Assembly: GCA_000965745.1 (NCBI GenBank) | Contig: CP009479.1 | Location: 256,001 to 320,000, forward strand | Origin: an uncultured archaeon | GTDB lineage: Archaea; Thermoplasmatota; Thermoplasmata; Thermoplasmatales; Thermoplasmataceae | Direction: 5' to 3' | Length of the DNA stretch: 64,000 nt | Shown: in pieces, positions 17,488 through 64,000 of the stretch | Layout: the number at the start of each line of letters is the position of its first letter | How positions within the stretch are numbered: the stretch's first letter is position 1 | Notes under the pieces: generated by a model | What the model was told of the DNA's origin: nothing | Databases searched by the model: none | The model's input: the letters and a program-made list of their open reading frames with translations, nothing else | Program-made: the position numbers and the translations under genes

Positions 17488-17844
17488 CGGAGCCGCCGTG
17501 CTTCATCTTCTTGGTTTTCTTTTCTTTGTTGTAATTACAGCATTTGCATCCCAGCTCTTAAAAATAAGAGGCCCAGATTTAGCAAAAAGGAAAAACTGAC
17601 ACGTTAAACGCATAATTGATTGTATCAAACTGCGAGATGCCCTTCTGAGTTCATAAGAAGCGATCCTATGCCATCTGGACACCTGAGTTGGTAGTTTGCC
17701 ATGTGGATTATCCAGAAGTGAGATGAGGGGAAAACTGACATCAAATTGTTTTTCAAAGCTACAAAAAGGTGAGAAGCTCCTGATTCCTCTTCTGTATTTA
17801 AATGACCACAGATATGATCCAATTAATTACATGAGTTAATAGAG

Positions 17845-17917
17845 AGCCACTGGAGGGTTTCGATCCCCCGGCCTGCTGATTACAAGTCAGCTGCTCTGCC
17901 AGCTGAGCTACAGTGGC
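17845..17917 (-). tRNA. tRNA-Thr(UGU)
   Basis: GCCACTG TA GCTC AGCTGGCA GAGC A GCTGA CTTGTAA TCAGC AGGCC GGGGG ATCGAAA CCCTC CAGTGGC T; full cloverleaf, CCA not encoded. Confidence 0.96.
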
Positions 17918-54389: not shown

Positions 54390-55027
54390 GGGAATCAATG
54401 TAGTTCTGATATTTATACTTTGTAGTCTCAATACACTGCGGCTCGGGAAGAGATTTCTGACCTGTCAAGGTTTGCAAGCAGAAATAAACATCGGGTTGTG
54501 CTGAAAGCAGGATGAAACCTGTAAGGCGGTAATCCCTTCCCATGGAGTGGCCCAGCGGGCGGTAGGTTACTGTTTCTTATCTGACCATGCCTCCGCAAAC
54601 AGGACACTCTTCTTGGGTACTGGCCAGAATGAGGCCGACACTGTTCTCCAGACATGCCGTGAATTTTCCTGCACGGAAACCAGGGGCAGGCCTCTCTTTG
54701 AGTGCTGTCTCCCCCGGCAGTCATATTTCCCCTACGCCCGTACCTCTCCCGGATCGTGTGGCCTTATCTGTTCGTGACTGCAAAGAAAACCCCAATGAAG
54801 CGGATTATAACATACAAACCGTGGAATATCCTGCCCTTCACCTGTAACACCTGGCCCGTCTCCTTTCCTGAAGACTGCAGTTAGTTCATGACTTAAATTG
54901 CAAGACATTTTGGTAAACACTGTGATGGGCTTTCAAGGCAGGAAAAAGCGTTTTCAAGGGCCCGGCATAAGATTTACTGCCAACTTTTTTTAGCCAAATT
55001 GGCATCATGCAGCCGAGGGGAGGTATA

Positions 55028-55252
55028 ATGGAGATCGAAGATTTTCTGGAGTCAATCTCGGAATCAGAATATGTGTATTATGACCCAGATACCGGCCTGT
55101 TCTTCAGCTGGAACGGTTTGCAGGTCGTGACGGTGTGGACGACGGATGAGGACGACTACGAGAACATCGATATGTTCACGATCGAGTCGGGGCATGACAC
55201 TGATTTTGTTCAGGAGAAAATTGACGGATACCTGGAATCAATTGAAGAATGA
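55028..55252 (+). CDS. Small very acidic protein
   Basis: GGAGGT RBS; 74 aa, D/E-rich. Confidence 0.7.
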   Translation: MEIEDFLESISESEYVYYDPDTGLFFSWNGLQVVTVWTTDEDDYENIDMFTIESGHDTDFVQEKIDGYLESIEE

Positions 55253-55401
55253 ACAGGATGTTTGTAATCCTTTTGTGGCGGATCGAAAATGTTCAACTGC
55301 GGAATCTTAATGACATACGGGGAGAAGATGGCCCCCAATGTTGCATCAATCCATGCAGGAATTATGGAGATTGAATAAACCTGAAGATATGGACTCTTAA
55401 T

Positions 55402-56925
55402 CCTTAACTCTTTAGTTTTTACGTAACATGTTGAGGCTCACTCCAAGATCCGTCACCAGCTCTCTCGCCTTCTTCGGTATCTCTCCCATGATTTCCCCTC
55501 CCTCCAGGGCGTATATCTTGATCCTTGACAGGATCAGGAGAATGTCTCTCACGCTGTATTTCCCATCGGTCCTGTTGAGTATCTGGAAGTGAATGTTCAG
55601 TGCGAGAAGGTTGAGGAAGAGATAGGAAAAGAGCATGTGATCGTCCCCGAGATATGACCGATCCGCCTCCAGATCATTCTTGAACACATTGAATGCGTAT
55701 TCAACATACTCTCGCTGCTTGTACAGCCTGTATATCCTCTCCGGGCTCTCTTTGAGGTCGGAGAGAAGATGCACCTTCCCGAATACTTGTGAACCCTCCA
55801 GGAATTGCTTCCGGCTTCTCTTTCCCTGCATGACCCTCTCGAGATAGTCCTTCTCCTCCTCCATCCTCAGTACCGGATCCTCGAATGCATACACTCCACT
55901 CACTGGATTCCAGTATTTCACAGGCCTGCCATCATAATCGAAAACGCCGGTGAACTCACTCGAAGCAGGGATCAGCGATGAGTTCCTCTTCAGCGGAATT
56001 ATGTAGTCAAGATGCAGTTTCCTGAGCTTCTTTATGTTATCAGCCGAGTAAAATCCCTTGTCCGCTATGATCACGCACCGCTCAACCCCGGCCATGATCA
56101 TGGTAGCCTTCATCGTGGAAACATCCCTGATCGAGCCCGGAATGATCCGTATGAATGTTGGCTCTCTCCTCGTGGATGAAAACAGCATCATCAGGTTGAT
56201 CTGTGGCAGATGTGTTCCATGGGAGTTGTGGCCCATCTCCAGAATCGGTATGCTGGAGGATCTGGAGAATATTGCCGTGCTGTCGATGAGTATGTATTCC
56301 CCTCTTGCGCACAGTGATCGCATGACCTCAATCATGCTTTCCTCCGGAAGGGATGAAAGCATTCCAGAGATCGATTTTGCAGTCATGCCTTCATTGAAGA
56401 CCTTGGATAACCATGTCTTCTCGAAGAGATATCGTACCGACTTCATGGGGAGAGGTTGTATCTCCCTGAGAAGCACGTAGATCATGATCCTCTCATGCAG
56501 GTAAGGAAATACCTGCCTCAGCATGGGGAGGATGCTCTTCTCGGCGATTCCGTAGAGAAGGGCAATGTTCCCGTATTCGTAGTCTCCCCTTATCCCCGAT
56601 ATCGCCTGCTTCTTCACGATGCCCCGGGGAGTGACGACTCCAAGGTACTCCGGTGGAAGCGATACTGTCTTCTTCCTTACCCTGTCCCACTTCGTTCTGG
56701 GCCTGTATGCGTAATAATTGTTGCCAAAGTTCCTGATCTGGATCCTGGGTCCCTTGTATTTCTGCACCCAGTCAGGTAATTCATCCATGATACGTACATA
56801 TACATAACATGCATATAAGAATTCCGCGAGGGAAGCATATTCAGAAAGAACTCGAAAAGGCCGACAGATAAAACGAAGTCACGCGATAGGGAACAAACTG
56901 TTATGTAAAACTGGAAGAGTTAAGG
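55402..56925 (-). mobile_element. IS1634-like insertion sequence (1524 bp)
   Basis: TIRs CCTTAACTCTTTAGTTTTTACGTAACA / CCTTAACTCTTCCAGTTTTACATAACA; 6-bp target duplication CTTAAT at 55396-55401 and 56926-56931. Confidence 0.92.
55412..56788 (-). CDS. DDE transposase (IS1634/IS4-like)
   Basis: LIDST, IADKGFYS, YKQREYVEYAFNVFK; stop codon lies inside the TIR. Confidence 0.93.
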   Translation of the reverse strand: MDELPDWVQKYKGPRIQIRNFGNNYYAYRPRTKWDRVRKKTVSLPPEYLGVVTPRGIVKKQAISGIRGDYEYGNIALLYGIAEKSILPMLRQVFPYLHERIMIYVLLREIQPLPMKSVRYLFEKTWLSKVFNEGMTAKSISGMLSSLPEESMIEVMRSLCARGEYILIDSTAIFSRSSSIPILEMGHNSHGTHLPQINLMMLFSSTRREPTFIRIIPGSIRDVSTMKATMIMAGVERCVIIADKGFYSADNIKKLRKLHLDYIIPLKRNSSLIPASSEFTGVFDYDGRPVKYWNPVSGVYAFEDPVLRMEEEKDYLERVMQGKRSRKQFLEGSQVFGKVHLLSDLKESPERIYRLYKQREYVEYAFNVFKNDLEADRSYLGDDHMLFSYLFLNLLALNIHFQILNRTDGKYSVRDILLILSRIKIYALEGGEIMGEIPKKARELVTDLGVSLNMLRKN

Positions 56926-57307
56926 CTTAATCCATAGGTCGGGGGTTCGAACCACCTCGGACCCGCCATATCTCTGTTTATTTCTGTGAGCATTTTCATT
57001 ATTGGATTTTTATTGAATATGAGAAAGTAGTCCATCTTTCAGTTTTGAATGTGGGAGAAACTTGGATTAGGCCAACTTGAAAGAAATTGCGATAATAATT
57101 TTAAATAAAATTGAATAAAGTGATGCGTCCAATTTATAAGGAGACTTCGTGATAGTTTGTCCACATCCTGTAAATCGTTCCCATTAAAAGTAGTTCCAAG
57201 TATCATTGCTTAATATGACAATAACCCAAGCTTTAAGGTGTCAAAAAACCCCATCAGGTTTACCTGCTTATTCGCAAAGTGAAATTAAAATATGTACAAC
57301 ACTATAT

Positions 57308-58009
57308 GTGATAGTGGAAAAACCAACTCAGGATGACCAACAGAAGAAGAAAGAAATCATAGTATTAGATCCGTCTGCCCTTCAATACTTGATTGACATT
57401 AGTCTGACTTTGCAGGATGGTTATGAGGTATTTCTACCGGATGAGTTGTATGAGGACTTGGATGAACAGAAAAGATTTTTCTTGATTAAGTTGTTAAACT
57501 ATTGGAACGGCTATAAGTTGTCAGATAAAAGAATCGACAAACTAATATCAGACATTAGAGGTGGGAAAAGAATTCATAAATTTTCAGAATTGGAGTTTGA
57601 ATATAATGATGAGGGAGACCTAACCCTTGAAGAACTTATCAAAAGCAGAAAGGGCCCCCGCGATAGGGAACTAAGATATTGGATTTTTAAAATCATTTCC
57701 AAAACTATAGCGTTTGCTAAGAAATTTCAAGCCTCTATCGTTTCAATGTCTAACAAATTGTTCGACTTACTTTCATCCACATCTATGAATATCTTAAACC
57801 TTTCAAAGGGGTATGTGAAATCTCTGAAAGAATTGCCAGTACTTGTCAGACTGTTGAAGGATAACAAATGGATCAAGAAGAGTAAAAAATACATATCATA
57901 CATAATTGATATGATATCTGGCATAATCGGAGCTTCTAGTATACATCCCATTCTGGGTGGGGCACTTGGAGTAACTGTCCCGAATGTTTTACTCGTGATG
58001 GACCCTTGA
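57308..58009 (+). CDS. PIN-like protein with C-terminal hydrophobic hairpin
   Basis: IIVLDPSAL and VFLPDELYEDL resemble PIN strands 1 and 2; tail IIDMISGIIGASSIHPILGGALGVTVPNVLLVMDP. Start uncertain. Confidence 0.55.
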   Translation: MIVEKPTQDDQQKKKEIIVLDPSALQYLIDISLTLQDGYEVFLPDELYEDLDEQKRFFLIKLLNYWNGYKLSDKRIDKLISDIRGGKRIHKFSELEFEYNDEGDLTLEELIKSRKGPRDRELRYWIFKIISKTIAFAKKFQASIVSMSNKLFDLLSSTSMNILNLSKGYVKSLKELPVLVRLLKDNKWIKKSKKYISYIIDMISGIIGASSIHPILGGALGVTVPNVLLVMDP

Positions 58010-58131
58010 ATTTATTAAGTTGCTGGCACATCGAGGCCAGGGGTTTAAAGCTTAATCAAACGAAATTCAGCATAATTTATTTATACCGTTGAGTAAATGT
58101 TTCATTAAGTAGGAGTTTACCAAGATTTAGA

Positions 58132-58788
58132 ATGAACAGTGGATTCAGATATAAGAAGAACAGTGGATTTCATTACAGGCCTTACAAAAGGCCCAAAAGA
58201 AATAGGCGTCATGGTACTGTAACATGCTGCTGGTGCCACCAGCCCTTGTCAGACCCCTTAGCAAGGAGTAGGAGGATGGGATCAGATTGTTTTGCAAAAC
58301 ACAACGGTAGGTGCCCACCAGTGAGTTCTACATTTGGTGAGGTTTATTCACATAATCCTTTCGAAGATTCTGGTCTGGAACATCTCTACAGGGTTAGAAA
58401 ATCCCTTAAATTTCTATTTACGACAAAACTTGGTAGGTCTTTACTGTCAAATGCCATAGTTCATGCTTTGTCTCCTATACCAGGCATGGCTCCAGTTGTA
58501 GTAGCATATGATGTCTACAAGGCGTATAAATACGCAAAAATGGGGCATGAAGTCTATACCGCTGTTGAGCGTTGGAGGCAGCACGACAAAAAAGATTTGC
58601 TTAAGACGGAGGGAAACCTCCAAAAGGAAAGCGTTGATGACATAATGGAGAGAACACAAAGTTCAATAATGGATATGGCAACGGTAAATAGAATGGACGC
58701 AAGTTCTTATTCTGATATGATGAGAGGGACACTTTCGGAATCAGCAAGGCATGGATTTGATGAGTTTGCAGGGTTTGTATTGTCATAG
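58132..58788 (+). CDS. Zinc-finger protein (DUF6011-like)
   Basis: CCWCHQPLSDPLARSRRMGSDC fits CxxC..LxDP....GxxC; basic N-terminus; AGGAG upstream. Confidence 0.65.
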   Translation: MNSGFRYKKNSGFHYRPYKRPKRNRRHGTVTCCWCHQPLSDPLARSRRMGSDCFAKHNGRCPPVSSTFGEVYSHNPFEDSGLEHLYRVRKSLKFLFTTKLGRSLLSNAIVHALSPIPGMAPVVVAYDVYKAYKYAKMGHEVYTAVERWRQHDKKDLLKTEGNLQKESVDDIMERTQSSIMDMATVNRMDASSYSDMMRGTLSESARHGFDEFAGFVLS

Positions 58789-58802
58789 GTGGGAATATAT
58801 AT

Positions 58803-59084
58803 ATGAGTAAAGAATCTGAAATAATAGGGGTAATCTCTGCGAGGAAATACGCACTTTTCGAAACGATCAAAACAGAGCTTTTGGGAAAAAGTGAATTGCA
58901 GGGGTATGACAAAGAAGAGCTTCAAGCAAAATTAAGAGACGCGATATCTACCCTTCCCAATATGATGTTTCTTAGCGAAGAGGAAAAGGAGACTAATAAA
59001 ATAAGACAAGAACTAAAACTTGAACAAATTGGAATTGCCGAGAAAGAAGTTTTTGAGAGGATCAGTAAATACTTGTCGAGTTAG
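58803..59084 (+). CDS. Small helical hypothetical protein
   Basis: AGGTGG RBS, 14 nt after the previous stop. Confidence 0.7.
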   Translation: MSKESEIIGVISARKYALFETIKTELLGKSELQGYDKEELQAKLRDAISTLPNMMFLSEEEKETNKIRQELKLEQIGIAEKEVFERISKYLSS

Positions 59085-59252
59085 ATTCCCTTCTTAAAAA
59101 GTCTCTTTTAAATTTTACTTTGTATTAGTCCATTTTGGCAAACGATAGATTTTTTGGGCATTTAATGGCCTTTTGCCATCATGCCGCATTGTAAGTGATG
59201 GGGGAGTGGAAGATTAGCGGAACCACGTTGACTTTGTAATGACAAAATCAAT

Positions 59253-60245
59253 CTATTTAAACAACAGATCCAGTATATATGGGGACGGCCCCAAAAGATA
59301 TTGATCCTCCTGGATCTTTCCTAAGTTCATCCCAATCCGAAAGGTTGGTCTTGGAGGGCTATTCTCTAGCGTTTCTATCACACGTTTTACTCTCTTATCT
59401 TCTTCTGAATATCCCACTACGAATACAGAGAAAAATTCCTCATTTATTCCTTGTTCAGACATATATTTTTCAAAATATTTGAACACGTAACCGTCTTCAT
59501 CGGGGAATACCCAACCTAGATTGCCTACTACATTATTTTCATCAAATTCCTCAACATCTCCATGAAATTTCCAAAGATTTCCCCTTGAAGCTACATGAAT
59601 ATTTTTGTTCACTTTTTTAAACTCTTTTGGAAGTCCCCTAATGGCTTTTTCTAATAGGTCGTCCCAATTGAGACTTATTATCTCCTTAATCTTGTTGGGA
59701 AAGTTTTCTGCAATTAACTGATGAGATATGCCGGGAGATTTTTTATCAAGCATTTCTCTAAAAACCTTCTTGAATTTGTAGCATTTTTTAGGGTCGTTTC
59801 GTAGGTCTACATAATCGATAGCTCCACAAAAACGTAATATATCTTTCAACTCATTAGAAAGAGGCATTCCACTTTCAAAAGAAAGTCCAGCACCTGCAAT
59901 GAAGATAGCTCCTTCAACATCGATCTTTTGTTTTGCAGCGCTCATCTTTGTATGCTGACCCAATATAGCTTGAAGAAACGTTCGAGAATACTCTTCAACT
60001 GTCTTAAGTTGTAATGAAGGGTTTAGTTTTCCAATTGTTTTGTCCTCTTCCGAGTACTTCTCCTTCACTTGGTCAAAAATTCTATGCAATATTGGCTCTA
60101 GATTCTCAAGGTTTTCTCTTATATTCGTCAGATAATTCTTCAAGAAACGCACAGTAGAACCTCGCAGAGCCTCAATTGAGGCATCACTTGTGCCAAAACT
60201 CATTAAAATCGCCATGGACCCCCAATAGTCTCTTCGAGTATTCAT
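59253..60245 (-). CDS. SIR2-like (NADase-type) domain protein
   Basis: IFIAGAGLSFESGMP, ISLNWDDLLE, WKFHGDV, VVGYSEED. Confidence 0.88.
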   Translation of the reverse strand: MNTRRDYWGSMAILMSFGTSDASIEALRGSTVRFLKNYLTNIRENLENLEPILHRIFDQVKEKYSEEDKTIGKLNPSLQLKTVEEYSRTFLQAILGQHTKMSAAKQKIDVEGAIFIAGAGLSFESGMPLSNELKDILRFCGAIDYVDLRNDPKKCYKFKKVFREMLDKKSPGISHQLIAENFPNKIKEIISLNWDDLLEKAIRGLPKEFKKVNKNIHVASRGNLWKFHGDVEEFDENNVVGNLGWVFPDEDGYVFKYFEKYMSEQGINEEFFSVFVVGYSEEDKRVKRVIETLENSPPRPTFRIGMNLGKIQEDQYLLGPSPYILDLLFK

Positions 60246-61092
60246 CGTGGCTAATCACCCCATTTAGAAATTTCTTTCTCAACGCTGATGAAACGTTATC
60301 CACTTCGTTCAAAATTATCATCCTAAATTTGAAGTTGATTTGACTCTGTATTTTTTCAATTTCTTTAATGTTCTTTGACTTTTTTTCCACATTATTCTCC
60401 TCTAGCTTAGATTTCTCATCCTTGTATTCGATTGCAGAGTCCAATTCATCTAACTCTTTTTCGAGGTCCACCCCATATAGCTTTCTTCTATTGTCAAAGT
60501 CCTTGTTTAAAATTTTTTTAATGTATTGAAGATGGTTTCTTGAATACTTGTACAACTCAATAGCTTGGTTAAGTAATACTATGTTAGACAATGTTAGCAA
60601 AGTATTTTCCTTTGCCTGAGCATATGCCTTGGAAAGAGATTGATCCACAAAGTATTTGTCCAAACCGGAAAATCCAACTAACGTTGAATTTATCAATAAT
60701 TTCTTGTCTGTTGAATGTGTGATTGACGAGTCATTAAATCTTAGACCCGCTAAAGATGCAGACGGCCCGCTACTTTCCTTCTCAAGTGTCGTGCTTCCCG
60801 CCAATTCTTGAAGTTCTATGGCAGTTTCGCTCACTTTTTTTATTTTCTTTATGTTCTCCATCAGGTCAACTTTCTTCTCTTCTATCGCTTGCCTTTTTCC
60901 GCCCAACCTTTTAGTTCTGTACTTCTTAAGAGCAATACTTGAATCTCTCGGGCTATCAACTTTCTCAATGACCTCAAGTTGAAACTTTGTAGAATTCAAT
61001 AGCGTCGATAACCTCTCATATAACTCTTTTTGATCATATTGAGGGTATAGGCTGTACAAACGATCAATCAACTGACTGATGTCCATGTTCAT
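60184..61092 (-). CDS. Coiled-coil protein; possibly the N-terminal half of the SIR2 gene
   Basis: K/E-rich heptads; overlaps the SIR2 ORF by 62 nt. Confidence 0.7.
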   Translation of the reverse strand: MNMDISQLIDRLYSLYPQYDQKELYERLSTLLNSTKFQLEVIEKVDSPRDSSIALKKYRTKRLGGKRQAIEEKKVDLMENIKKIKKVSETAIELQELAGSTTLEKESSGPSASLAGLRFNDSSITHSTDKKLLINSTLVGFSGLDKYFVDQSLSKAYAQAKENTLLTLSNIVLLNQAIELYKYSRNHLQYIKKILNKDFDNRRKLYGVDLEKELDELDSAIEYKDEKSKLEENNVEKKSKNIKEIEKIQSQINFKFRMIILNEVDNVSSALRKKFLNGVISHDEYSKRLLGVHGDFNEFWHK

Positions 61093-61096
61093 TGCA

Positions 61097-62011
61097 TCAC
61101 TTCAATTCTCTTTTTAAGGTCTGTGACATTAATTCTGATAATTTGTTTCTGAACTCTGGGGGTAGTTCAATTACTCCTTCCTTTGATTTGGAATCTTGGT
61201 TGATTTCCATGAACACAATGAAGGCTTCCCTCCATTTTCTGAGATATTCCCACACAGTCTTAGTCGTTCGTCCTTCATCTTCAATTATATCTTTCAAATT
61301 GTTTATGGTCTCAAAGTAGGCTGATTTTACTTTTTCTTGATAAAGCTTCGTATCCATTTTCAAAAAGCTTTTTGTATAATCAAATAACCAATCCATAGAC
61401 ATCAAAAGAGCGAGAAATAAGATGTCTCCCTTTACATACCCGGTTAGATTTCCAATTCGTTGTGCTTCGTTAATGACTCCTTTAAAGAGATTGTTTGAGG
61501 GAAAGAGGAGATATTCCTTAGAAGAAATCAAGAAATCAATCAACCACTTAAAGGACGCTTCTGTATGTAATATGTCAATTTCTCTTTCATAGTATGCTTC
61601 ATCTTCTCTAACATCATGTTCGAACTTCCTAAATGCATTCCTAAAGTTCAAGAAGAGGTTCCATAAATTTTCAGTCGCATTCTTTCCTCTTAAATCTAAT
61701 GAGCCTAAGTGAGTGAGTAGTTCTGTCCCAGGGAGCCTTGCTTGGCTTAGATATTCTGTCTCAAGCTTAGTTGGGTCTTGATTCGAAAATGCTGTATAAT
61801 TTATTGCGGCAATTCTAATTATAAAGCCAGCTATACCGGAATTTATGTCATTTGAAATCATAGCGTCCGAGAGAACTCTATTGGAGTATATTGTCATAAA
61901 AAAGTAATCGGACTTATCGAAAGCAGCTTGAGCAGCTTCAATATGATCTCTTATCACCCCATGATCTTTTGTGCTAGACACTCCTAAAACCACCAAGTTA
62001 TCGACAAACAA
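61097..62011 (-). CDS. All-alpha hypothetical protein, first gene of the SIR2 operon
   Basis: 304-aa ORF ending 4 nt before the next start. Confidence 0.72.
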   Translation of the reverse strand: MFVDNLVVLGVSSTKDHGVIRDHIEAAQAAFDKSDYFFMTIYSNRVLSDAMISNDINSGIAGFIIRIAAINYTAFSNQDPTKLETEYLSQARLPGTELLTHLGSLDLRGKNATENLWNLFLNFRNAFRKFEHDVREDEAYYEREIDILHTEASFKWLIDFLISSKEYLLFPSNNLFKGVINEAQRIGNLTGYVKGDILFLALLMSMDWLFDYTKSFLKMDTKLYQEKVKSAYFETINNLKDIIEDEGRTTKTVWEYLRKWREAFIVFMEINQDSKSKEGVIELPPEFRNKLSELMSQTLKRELK

Positions 62012-62255
62012 TAAAGTGAGTCTATGTTTGCCATCTTGTCACAATATAAACTGCAATATTAAAATTTAGCAGACGGCATACACTCTAGTGCATGAATGTG
62101 CTATGGCATTTTCAAAATCTTTGAATGGCCCATAAACTATGAGACAATAACCCCGTTTAGGACCATGACTAAATTTGGCTCAAGTCAAGGATTTCCAACC
62201 TTAGCAAGCATTTTGATAAACAGTAATTTTTTTGGACTAAGAGTATAGCTAGATA

Positions 62256-63440
62256 TTATTTTGTTTCTGCATGATGTAATTCGAAGAATTTTCTTTTCAA
62301 TAACCTGTCATCTGTGCCATGAGTCAAATAATTCTCAAGCATACCTAATTGAAAGATACTATTTGTGAAGTCAATAGCTCTCAAAATCGAATCAAGAATG
62401 TCACTGATTGCAAGAATGCTACTTCCAACAATCTTAAACTCTGTCGATTTCGTTTTGGACCCCTTGGCAAATTCATTTATGCCTTCAAGGTGAATCCTTT
62501 CCTTTTTGGTTCTGAGTATCTTCACGAAATGACATAGAATAGGGTCAAATTCCCCATTTATTTCCCTTTCATCTGGTCTTTCAATCGTTATCCAATCAAA
62601 GAAGGCTTTAGTACTATCTGGAAATGTCAATATTGCTCTTGAAATGACTGACCCACGCTGGTCTTCATTTATTAATCTAATAATGCTTGCAATTACATCT
62701 TCAGGTGGATATTTTTCGAACCCCAATAATAAAGCTGTTCCAAGGGCTTGATCCGAGCTAAGTTTCCATGATTCTTTTAATTCCAGAGCCCTTCTCTTTC
62801 TCTCTTCTGTGGATTTTTCCAAATTTTTGACGCTTCCTCTGAATTTAGGCATTTTTTCACGGAAAAAATTAGCTTCATTAAGATTAGAACTTCTTTTGAT
62901 TAAGTCCTCTAGGTGATTAACCACAAGGTCTGGAAAGATTAGGGTATCCTCGTAGGGAGTGTTTGAATTCATGTCTTCTGTTAGAACCCGGTGAATATCA
63001 ACGTCGGGAATGAGTTCTTCACTCATGATATACTTAGCGGCATCGGCGAATCTTAGTGAATAAAGGACAGCAAACTGCCTAAACCAAGGAGAAACCATAA
63101 AATCATGTAAAATATCATTTCCCAATGCACACATATACTGAAAAGTCAAGGGCACACGGACACTTCCCTTAAAGGATAGACTGTAGTGGATTTTCTTCTT
63201 ACTTTGAGATCTTGTTCTATTATACTCATCTTTTTGGTTACCATCGGAGTGTACTATTCCTTGAGAAATTAGAACAGATAAGTGATTTCTAATTGTCCTT
63301 TGTTGAGATATACCTATTTCCTTCGATAGAATTGTTGTTATTTCCTTTAGACTCTTATAGCCAGTTGCCAGAGCATTTATGATATACCCCCTAGTCTCAT
63401 TCGGGAGGCCCCTTTGACCAACCTTTCGCTTTGTAACCAC
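62256..63440 (-). CDS. Protein with N-terminal winged HTH
   Basis: IINALATGYKSLKEITTILSKEIGISQQRTIRNHLSVLISQGIV. Confidence 0.7.
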   Translation of the reverse strand: MVTKRKVGQRGLPNETRGYIINALATGYKSLKEITTILSKEIGISQQRTIRNHLSVLISQGIVHSDGNQKDEYNRTRSQSKKKIHYSLSFKGSVRVPLTFQYMCALGNDILHDFMVSPWFRQFAVLYSLRFADAAKYIMSEELIPDVDIHRVLTEDMNSNTPYEDTLIFPDLVVNHLEDLIKRSSNLNEANFFREKMPKFRGSVKNLEKSTEERKRRALELKESWKLSSDQALGTALLLGFEKYPPEDVIASIIRLINEDQRGSVISRAILTFPDSTKAFFDWITIERPDEREINGEFDPILCHFVKILRTKKERIHLEGINEFAKGSKTKSTEFKIVGSSILAISDILDSILRAIDFTNSIFQLGMLENYLTHGTDDRLLKRKFFELHHAETK

Positions 63441-63653
63441 TGGTGATTAGTCAGATTGAGTATTTTAGCTTTTGTAAATTTAACATATGATTCTTTTTCT
63501 CCTAATTTACATAAGTCTCTTTCATATCCCGTTATACCTTACAGAATTGTTAAAACATGCATAGGATTCATCTATAAGTGATCCCCGCCCATTCAAAAAA
63601 ATTGCCATATCTGTTGTGGATAACATTAGCATTGATTTCGTTTTTCTTATTTT

Positions 63654-64000
63654 GACATTGTCAACTTCCGGTTGATAAGTACCGGTGATACCAGTAGGAT
63701 GTCCGCAGGAGACCTTCTTCAGTCTTGAACCGGTGCTTAAAAAGCCATGACTGTACTGAGAAATGCTGTTCCGCCTTGTCTGAGGTCTTCTCCACATCAG
63801 GATTCTCAAGATACAGGAACACCTCCTTCCTGTGCTTTTTCACCCATTTGAGGAAGGATGCCATGATACTGTCACCGCCATAGAGGCTGTTGATCCTGTC
63901 AAGCATTATTTCAACGATCTCCCTCTCACTCATGCCCTCAGTGAGCTTCAACACCGCATCCCGGTTCTTTCCCAGCTTCTTCAGGTTTGTTCTATTCTGG
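63654..64000 (-). mobile_element. C-terminal part of a DDE transposase / IS end (family uncertain)
   Basis: GC rises again; FLYLENPDVEKTSDKAEQHFS...RFKT resembles the TNN..E motif; stop at 63661 next to the possible end GACATTGTC. Confidence 0.65.

Follow-up and report, generated by a model that had tools for sequence, protein, structure and literature searches.

Two of the described defence systems that come close to the locus studied here are built around a SIR2 NADase, an enzyme that hydrolyses NAD+. Kongming (KomABC; bioRxiv 10.1101/2024.12.20.629578, PMC13454610) comprises three genes: KomC, a small stand-alone SIR2 NADase of 264 amino acids (aa), forms a complex with the adjacent KomB, and the third protein serves as the input. 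In DSR2, a SIR2 NADase is joined to sensing parts that are helical, have no enzymatic activity and bind a protein of the phage (PMC10981675, PMC11087589). Our subject is a cassette of three genes, called A, B and SIR2 below, from an uncultured archaeon of the Thermoplasmataceae. It lies in a stretch of 64,000 nucleotides (nt) (contig CP009479.1, positions 256,001 to 320,000), and 'the window' denotes this whole stretch. An earlier note, made from the letters of the window only, had reported three tightly packed minus-strand genes. This is the arrangement we see (Table 1): A and B are separated by a 4-nt gap, while B and SIR2 overlap in different frames, by 62 nt if the longest SIR2 open reading frame (ORF) is taken and by 32 nt from the internal ATG at 60215. 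Since homologues of all three occur in synteny elsewhere, and since the ratio of nonsynonymous to synonymous substitution rates (dN/dS, on unsaturated pairs) is 0.15-0.33 for each of them, A, B and SIR2 are all genuine coding genes, and all three are under purifying selection. The balance of the evidence, in our view, tips slightly towards a conflict system of the abortive-infection type that is complete in its three components and moves horizontally.

How does this cassette stand next to the systems that already have a name? Its layout appears nearest to that of Kongming and its logic to that of DSR2, and its SIR2 domain looks closest to those of ThsA and KomC. Judged from sequence, however, it lacks the partner features that define Thoeris, DSR1/2, SIR2-HerA, SPARSA, Avs5, Lamassu and Kongming. 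KomA is a deaminase-type protein and KomB a HAM1-like NTP pyrophosphatase, whereas A and B are helical and match neither. The profiles of A and B retrieved no Kom chain of the PDB at an E-value of 10 or better, no Pfam domain of the KomA or KomB type was found in them, and no enzyme that would make a nucleotide signal is evident in the cassette. The resemblance to Thoeris is confined to ThsA, a SIR2-SLOG protein that is the closest solved SIR2 sequence, with its NxD and HGD motifs aligned. The cassette has no SLOG domain, its SIR2 protein carries an N-terminal helical extension of its own, and the partners are different; no TIR protein (ThsB) was found in A, B or the neighbouring genes by Pfam or PADLOC. 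As for DSR2, the role that we propose for A and B would be functionally equivalent to that of its helical sensing parts. DSR2 is nevertheless a single polypeptide of ~1000 aa with an N-terminal SIR2 domain, whereas here there are two separate helical genes and a C-terminal SIR2 domain in a protein of 320-330 aa, and neither A nor B matches the DSR2 chains of the PDB in sequence or in fold.

The remaining comparisons can be settled more briefly. SIR2-HerA (Nezha) differs in its HerA partner, for which Pfam and PADLOC give no match here, and A and B contain no Walker A motif. The short prokaryotic Argonaute system SPARSA differs in its PIWI and APAZ domains, both missing from the cassette; Avs5 differs in having a STAND NTPase fused to SIR2, and no such fusion or P-loop is present. 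Lamassu with a SIR2-type LmuA has as partners LmuC and LmuB, an SMC-like ATPase with Walker motifs, whereas B has 302 aa and no Walker A motif, and neither A nor B has a PADLOC match at E <=0.01 (the PADLOC copy used dates from 2023). The earlier note had seen no TIR, HerA or Walker A, PIWI or STAND motif, and searches with Pfam, PADLOC and NCBIfam together with motif checks agree. It had also been unable to place the two partners in any named system; they stay outside, since PADLOC, Pfam, NCBIfam, PHROGs, profile searches of the PDB, Foldseek and VIA-align yield no match for either. We found no description of the A-B-SIR2 triad in the literature searched, the coverage of which was incomplete.

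The SIR2 protein itself is the easiest of the three to classify. With 32.2 bits (E 1.4e-7) it clears the 24.5-bit cut-off of the Pfam family SIR2_2 (PF13289), which most of its homologues carry as well. We collected 62 of these at ~30-52% identity; the family has ~60 clusters and lengths of ~300-420 aa. A helical N-terminal extension of ~100 aa precedes the SIR2 domain (residues ~108-330), so that the C-terminal position announced by the earlier note is correct. The motifs that it had read as intact (GAGxS, N, HG and GYS) are so, here as GAGxS, NWD, HGD and GYSE, and an alignment of 26 members keeps the following residues invariant: G118, G120 and S122 of GAGxS, N193-W194-D195, H228-G229-D230 and G278-Y279-x-E281. 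Homologous proteins begin at the position of Met11, which makes ATG 60215, giving 320 aa, the likely start. In a search of the PDB with the family profile, the closest solved sequence is the ThsA-type 'USG protein' 7uxt (E 4e-7), whose NYD and HGD motifs align with NWD and HGD of our protein; the second closest is KomC (8zsf, E 6e-4). PADLOC models give ThsA matches at E 4e-4 and weak Aga_SIR2 matches restricted to the SIR2 domain (E 2.4e-5), and of the 1000 bits required by the Avs5 model of NCBIfam only 11.9 are reached. From these motifs and relatives we infer that the SIR2 protein is an NAD+ hydrolase.

SIR2-fold enzymes also include deacylases and ADP-ribosyltransferases, and the protein might be a regulatory enzyme of one of these kinds, acting on a target of the cell or of a mobile element instead of depleting NAD+ in immunity; A and B would then be its substrates or would set its specificity. 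Weak CobB-type matches over the Rossmann part (E 8.6e-6) point in that direction. The scores nevertheless lie far under every deacylase cut-off (24.9 bits where 243 are required), and the CobB-type models of NCBIfam as a group give 17-25 bits against cut-offs of 221-395. The family matched is the defence-type SIR2_2, not the classical SIR2 family; there is no CxxC zinc-ribbon motif, the protein having two Cys residues only; and the gene is accessory, rare and patchily spread across domains. A HEPN-type protein, moreover, can take the place of SIR2 behind the same partners, as described below. We regard such a regulatory role as improbable. The narrower claim that the protein is not a housekeeping deacylase, a reading that the earlier note had named as fatal to its proposal, is supported at the sequence level by scores far below the CobB cut-offs, the lack of CxxC and its absence from the 60 same-family and 400 same-phylum genomes searched.

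The genes do co-occur elsewhere, as the earlier proposal of a system implied. We fetched the DNA around SIR2 relatives, from species genomes for 11 loci and from metagenomes for 33, and B stands directly upstream of SIR2 in every locus where the upstream DNA is readable. Iteration of the profile brought the matches to 39, and in most of them the stop codon of B overlaps the start of SIR2. The full order A-B-SIR2 is present in 22 fetched loci, which represent 15 distinct cassettes and span two domains of life: metagenome-assembled genomes (MAGs) of Thermoplasmata, Thaumarchaeota, Dehalococcoidia and Bacteroidetes, in addition to metagenomes. A shorter form of two genes was found in a MAG of the Deltaproteobacteria and in Candidatus Methanodesulfokora. 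No flanking gene is common to unrelated loci, and the unit of the cassette is therefore exactly these genes. The pairwise identities of A, B and SIR2 co-vary, with r ~0.94.

This cassette is accessory, rare and horizontally mobile. Searches for B in 60 further genomes of the family, including three of the same genus, and in a sample of 400 from the phylum found none. Among 401 genomes of the Dehalococcoidia class, A was found in two, as one copy in each, and both were already known to carry the cassette; a genome with the two-gene form (G442) contains no A anywhere. Translated searches (tblastn) of plasmid and phage collections with SIR2 and A gave no match, and a pattern scan of IMG/VR for SIR2 found nothing. 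In the SIR2 tree, the two-gene forms with a short B are basal, the copy of the window groups with that of the Thermoplasmatales archaeon UBA582, its nearest relative at only 48% identity, and a Thaumarchaeota copy lies inside a crown clade that includes the Dehalococcoidia copies. This distribution is patchy and driven by transfer.

Gene A, which is conserved, opens the three-gene form. Its start codon is uncertain: it may be TTG 62011 or GTG 61981, the latter as in a database form of 294 aa. The earlier description of A as all-alpha is borne out by an AlphaFold2 model, which is all-helical with ~13 helices (pLDDT 83.7, pTM 0.79). Word-seeded homologue searches with A and B returned only the window's own proteins, and homologues of both were obtained by synteny, through the DNA fetched around SIR2 relatives. 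For A this gave 22 homologues with hidden Markov model E-values of 1e-91 to 1e-135, in whose alignment N44, R45, S48, Y140, E182, R185, W260, R261 and F264 are invariant. Nothing usable was matched by A in Pfam, NCBIfam, PHROGs or PADLOC, and a profile built from the alignment gave only chance-level rows against PDB sequences. The structural searches were no more productive: Foldseek with the model of A has its best E-values at 0.37 (PDB) and 0.42 (BFVD), and the best VIA-align Z of the wide search, 10.7 to four-helix bundles such as CheA P1, is below the level that is meaningful for helical proteins. The ESM Atlas had no usable match for A or B. A weak PADLOC match of A to DUF3644 (E 0.018) is absent from other members of the family and was treated as chance.

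Gene B likewise matches no known family. It is built from three parts: an N-terminal domain of ~95 aa, in which a basic motif is conserved; a variable linker (residues ~101-143); and a C-terminal module of ~140 aa. The last is present in every SIR2-linked form and is the sole part kept in the short two-gene forms. The label 'coiled-coil' previously given to B is only roughly right: the AlphaFold2 model (pLDDT 76.9, pTM 0.49) is indeed helical and has two helices of 35-37 residues, but residues 101-143 are disordered. An exhaustive profile search of 1.84 billion proteins yielded 131 representatives of the B family, none longer than 468 aa. B has no usable match in Pfam, NCBIfam, PHROGs or PADLOC, its alignment profile retrieves only chance-level rows from PDB sequences, Foldseek against the PDB has its best E at 0.51, and the best Z of the wide VIA-align search is 7.5 (helical hairpins), again below the meaningful level for helical folds. 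Here too a weak PADLOC match, to Csm3 (E 0.086), was missing from other family members and was set aside as chance. No homology among the profiles of A, B and SIR2 was detected by hhalign.

The junction between B and SIR2 raises the question of whether these are two genes at all. Their ORFs, which lie in different frames, share 32-62 nt beside a short T run, and could have arisen from a single gene, with a fusion product of ~612 aa, that a frameshift of one base or a fault of the assembly has split. This, however, is extremely hard to credit. In every related locus B and SIR2 are two ORFs that overlap; the 131 representatives of the B family, with 468 aa at most, include no natural fusion; and homologous SIR2 proteins start at the M11 position. 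Contigs from four runs in two studies also agree in showing no indel at the junction, though such contigs drop rare variants and some of the runs may be the source of the window's own genome. Overlaps of 4 to 8 nt or longer recur at this junction in relatives (for example L009, L029, L013 and L041), and this overlap of stop and start codons suggests that B and SIR2 are translationally coupled.

What links A to B? All 22 loci that have A also have the N-terminal domain of B. Of the loci without A whose upstream DNA is long enough to tell, only L020 has this domain. One A-less two-gene cassette presents a further variation, in which a winged-helix helix-turn-helix (HTH) domain replaces the N-terminal domain of B (HTH_11 E 2.9e-5, MarR 2e-4); the search reported only that one member matched, and we assigned the protein to its locus (L025) from sequence.

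A profile search revealed, in addition, a sister family of ~285 aa that has only the N-terminal domain of B (~95 residues), joined to a different C-terminal half. At least ~20 representatives lie on short contigs (including P0148, P0150, P0151, P0154, P0158, P0159, P0162 and P0167), and the family is too variable for a pattern scan. In 400 genomes of the Dehalococcoidia class the search for it found only B's own N-terminal domain. A pattern scan of IMG/VR with the alignment of A retrieved two records (L054 and L055), of which one is classed as a provirus and the other as a linear fragment. Each contains a homologue of A (E ~1e-87), a B-like protein of the sister family and, at the place of SIR2, a protein of 121-123 aa; neither encodes a relative of SIR2. 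The small protein of L055 matches Pfam HEPN with 23.3 bits against a cut-off of 22 and has the motif RVDADH, where that of L054 reads RRRADY; the two proteins share 35% identity. As both loci keep A and the N-terminal domain of B with a HEPN-type protein replacing SIR2, these two elements form a constant module, and the C-terminal half of B changes together with the effector.

A mechanism can be sketched from this arrangement. The SIR2_2 protein would be the effector: its release or activation would lead to hydrolysis of NAD+ and so to arrest of the infected cell. B would act as an adaptor or regulator: its effector-specific C-terminal module probably binds the helical N-terminal extension of SIR2, and its N-terminal domain would dock A, the conserved helical input component and presumed sensor. 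Activation of the sister cassette would lead instead to RNA cleavage and growth arrest of the infected cell. The earlier note had both helical proteins sensing infection; on the present evidence, B is better described as an adaptor or regulator than as a plain 'sensor'. We would go one step further, though tentatively and at chances just short of even: A and the N-terminal domain of B may be the portable input module of a previously unrecognised three-component immune family, common to archaea, bacteria and proviruses, which arms an interchangeable SIR2 NADase or HEPN RNase via effector-specific C-terminal halves of B, with A as a new kind of helical infection sensor.

Toxin-antitoxin modules of the toxin-antitoxin-chaperone (TAC) and HEPN-MNT types are compact, translationally coupled and carried by mobile elements, and different toxins, HEPN among them, can follow the same conserved partner. 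The cassette shares with them its compact, coupled and mobile character and the exchange of a toxin-type gene behind a conserved partner. It may thus be asked whether A-B-SIR2 is a tripartite addiction module, in which SIR2 or HEPN is the toxin, B a labile antitoxin and A a chaperone or stabiliser of B, serving to stabilise mobile elements with or without antiviral protection. Several features would fit. An antitoxin-like gene precedes the toxin with overlapping stop and start codons, the linker of B is disordered and hypervariable, and the one A-less B with a winged-helix HTH N-terminus (HTH_11, as above) resembles many antitoxins in this respect. HEPN is a classic toxin fold, the toxins would swap behind a constant partner, and the cassette resides in mobile islands and predicted proviruses. 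On the other hand, B has ~300 aa, far above the typical size of an antitoxin, no DNA-binding domain was detected in its long forms, and A matches no chaperone family or fold. Unlike the TAC and HEPN-MNT modules, A and B contain no SecB-like chaperone, MNT nucleotidyltransferase or known antitoxin fold, and the gene order of TAC is different. We consider an addiction module unlikely, though it is the strongest of the rival readings; the same logic is found in many named defence systems, so that it overlaps with the conflict system that we favour and does not exclude it.

The reading as an abortive-infection-type system has to be weighed against several observations of our own. The stretch appears in no listed RNA run. 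The mean pairwise identity of A (0.39) is above that of B (0.29) and near that of SIR2 (0.48), which is unusual for a fast-evolving sensor of viruses. The association of A with the N-terminal domain of B is largely a matter of one clade of the SIR2 tree rather than of many independent events, and the HEPN variant is known from two loci only, one of whose small proteins has Tyr for the motif His. The genomic context is also less telling than might be hoped. Type I restriction-modification genes adjoin the cassette at three loci (L004, L029 and L054), with a type I methylase gene directly after it in L054, and the window's own island contains transposases, an HSDR_N nuclease and a PIN protein; yet restriction-modification neighbours amount to ~3 of ~20 independent contexts, and many flanks are housekeeping genes. 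The defence-island signal is real but modest.

In the window the cassette lies in a region of altered composition. The source genome, of the Thermoplasmata, is a single contig of 2.23 Mb with 52% GC; the GC profile falls from ~0.52 to ~0.36 at ~56.9 kb, stays low through the window end and is 0.34-0.49 for at least 18 kb beyond it. The AT-rich island of the earlier note is therefore plain, but its link to a tRNA could not be verified: the sole tRNA that ARAGORN reports in the window is a distant tRNA-Thr, and Rfam finds nothing over 55000-64000. A TATA-like element, TTTATATT, stands ~35 nt upstream of the start codon of A and is a possible archaeal promoter of the operon. The coordinates of these and the following features are given in Table 1.

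Table 1. Coordinates of the cassette, its variants and the features around it (window positions unless a locus or contig is named)
Feature	Position	Strand	Length	Remarks
Gene A	61097-62011	-	304 aa on ORF	all-helical, unnamed family
Gene B	60184-61092	-	302 aa	helical, disordered linker
SIR2_2 gene	59253-60245	-	330 aa on longest ORF; likely 320 aa from ATG 60215	
Overlap of B stop and SIR2 start	60184-60215	-		different frames
TATA-like TTTATATT	62043-62050	-		~35 nt upstream of A start codon; read from sequence
Sister cassette L054	L054:4983-7072			IMG/VR record
Sister cassette L055	L055:5001-7139			IMG/VR record
B with winged-helix HTH	L025:2433-3191			A-less two-gene cassette
IS4-type element	55397-56930			37-nt terminal inverted repeats
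DDE_Tnp_1 transposase	55412-56788			within IS4-type element
Three ORFs	57206-59084	+	267, 218 and 93 aa	converge on SIR2 operon
Non-coding element	62156-62238		~75 nt	between winged-helix gene and gene A
Copy of non-coding element	C1:1598953-1599035			84% identity
Copy of non-coding element	C1:1183933-1183998			82% identity
Winged-helix protein	62256-63440	-	394 aa	
HSDR_N_2 protein	L002 4536-5627			stand-alone nuclease domain
Mutator-family transposase	L002 5889-7052			
PIN protein	L002 10199-10591			
tRNA-Thr	17844-17917			ARAGORN

Several other features of the island deserve mention. An IS4-type element, with a DDE_Tnp_1 transposase and terminal inverted repeats, sits exactly at the GC drop that opens the island; neither ARAGORN nor Rfam shows a tRNA at it. 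Between this element and the operon lie three plus-strand ORFs, which have no counterpart near other cassettes; the only family match among them is a weak one of the 218-aa ORF to the DUF6011 zinc finger (E 5e-4). On the other side of the operon, a 394-aa protein combines a weakly matched N-terminal winged helix of the ArsR/Csa3 type (E ~1e-3 to 4e-5) with a long C-terminal part without assignment. We considered this gene as a conserved fourth member of the cassette and rejected it, as it has no counterpart in the related loci (L003-L046). A non-coding element between this gene and A has two copies elsewhere in the genome and turns up, in two runs, in foreign contigs of higher depth. Candidate identities are a miniature inverted-repeat transposable element (MITE), a local repeat, a small RNA and a remnant of an attachment (att) site. 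Past the window end (genome positions 319001-337000, L002), the island continues with the Mutator-family transposase, the stand-alone HSDR_N_2 protein and the PIN protein listed in the table.

SIR2 NADases are recurrent immune effectors, and how they are switched on depends on their partners; to these the cassette adds two partner families that match none described. The two-gene form, the three-gene form and the exchange of SIR2 for HEPN together separate an effector-specific part of B from the part that is linked to A. This gives a concrete wiring diagram, open to test, of a new sensing module, and does so for Thermoplasmata, Thaumarchaeota and Dehalococcoidia, lineages in which almost no immune systems have been tested.

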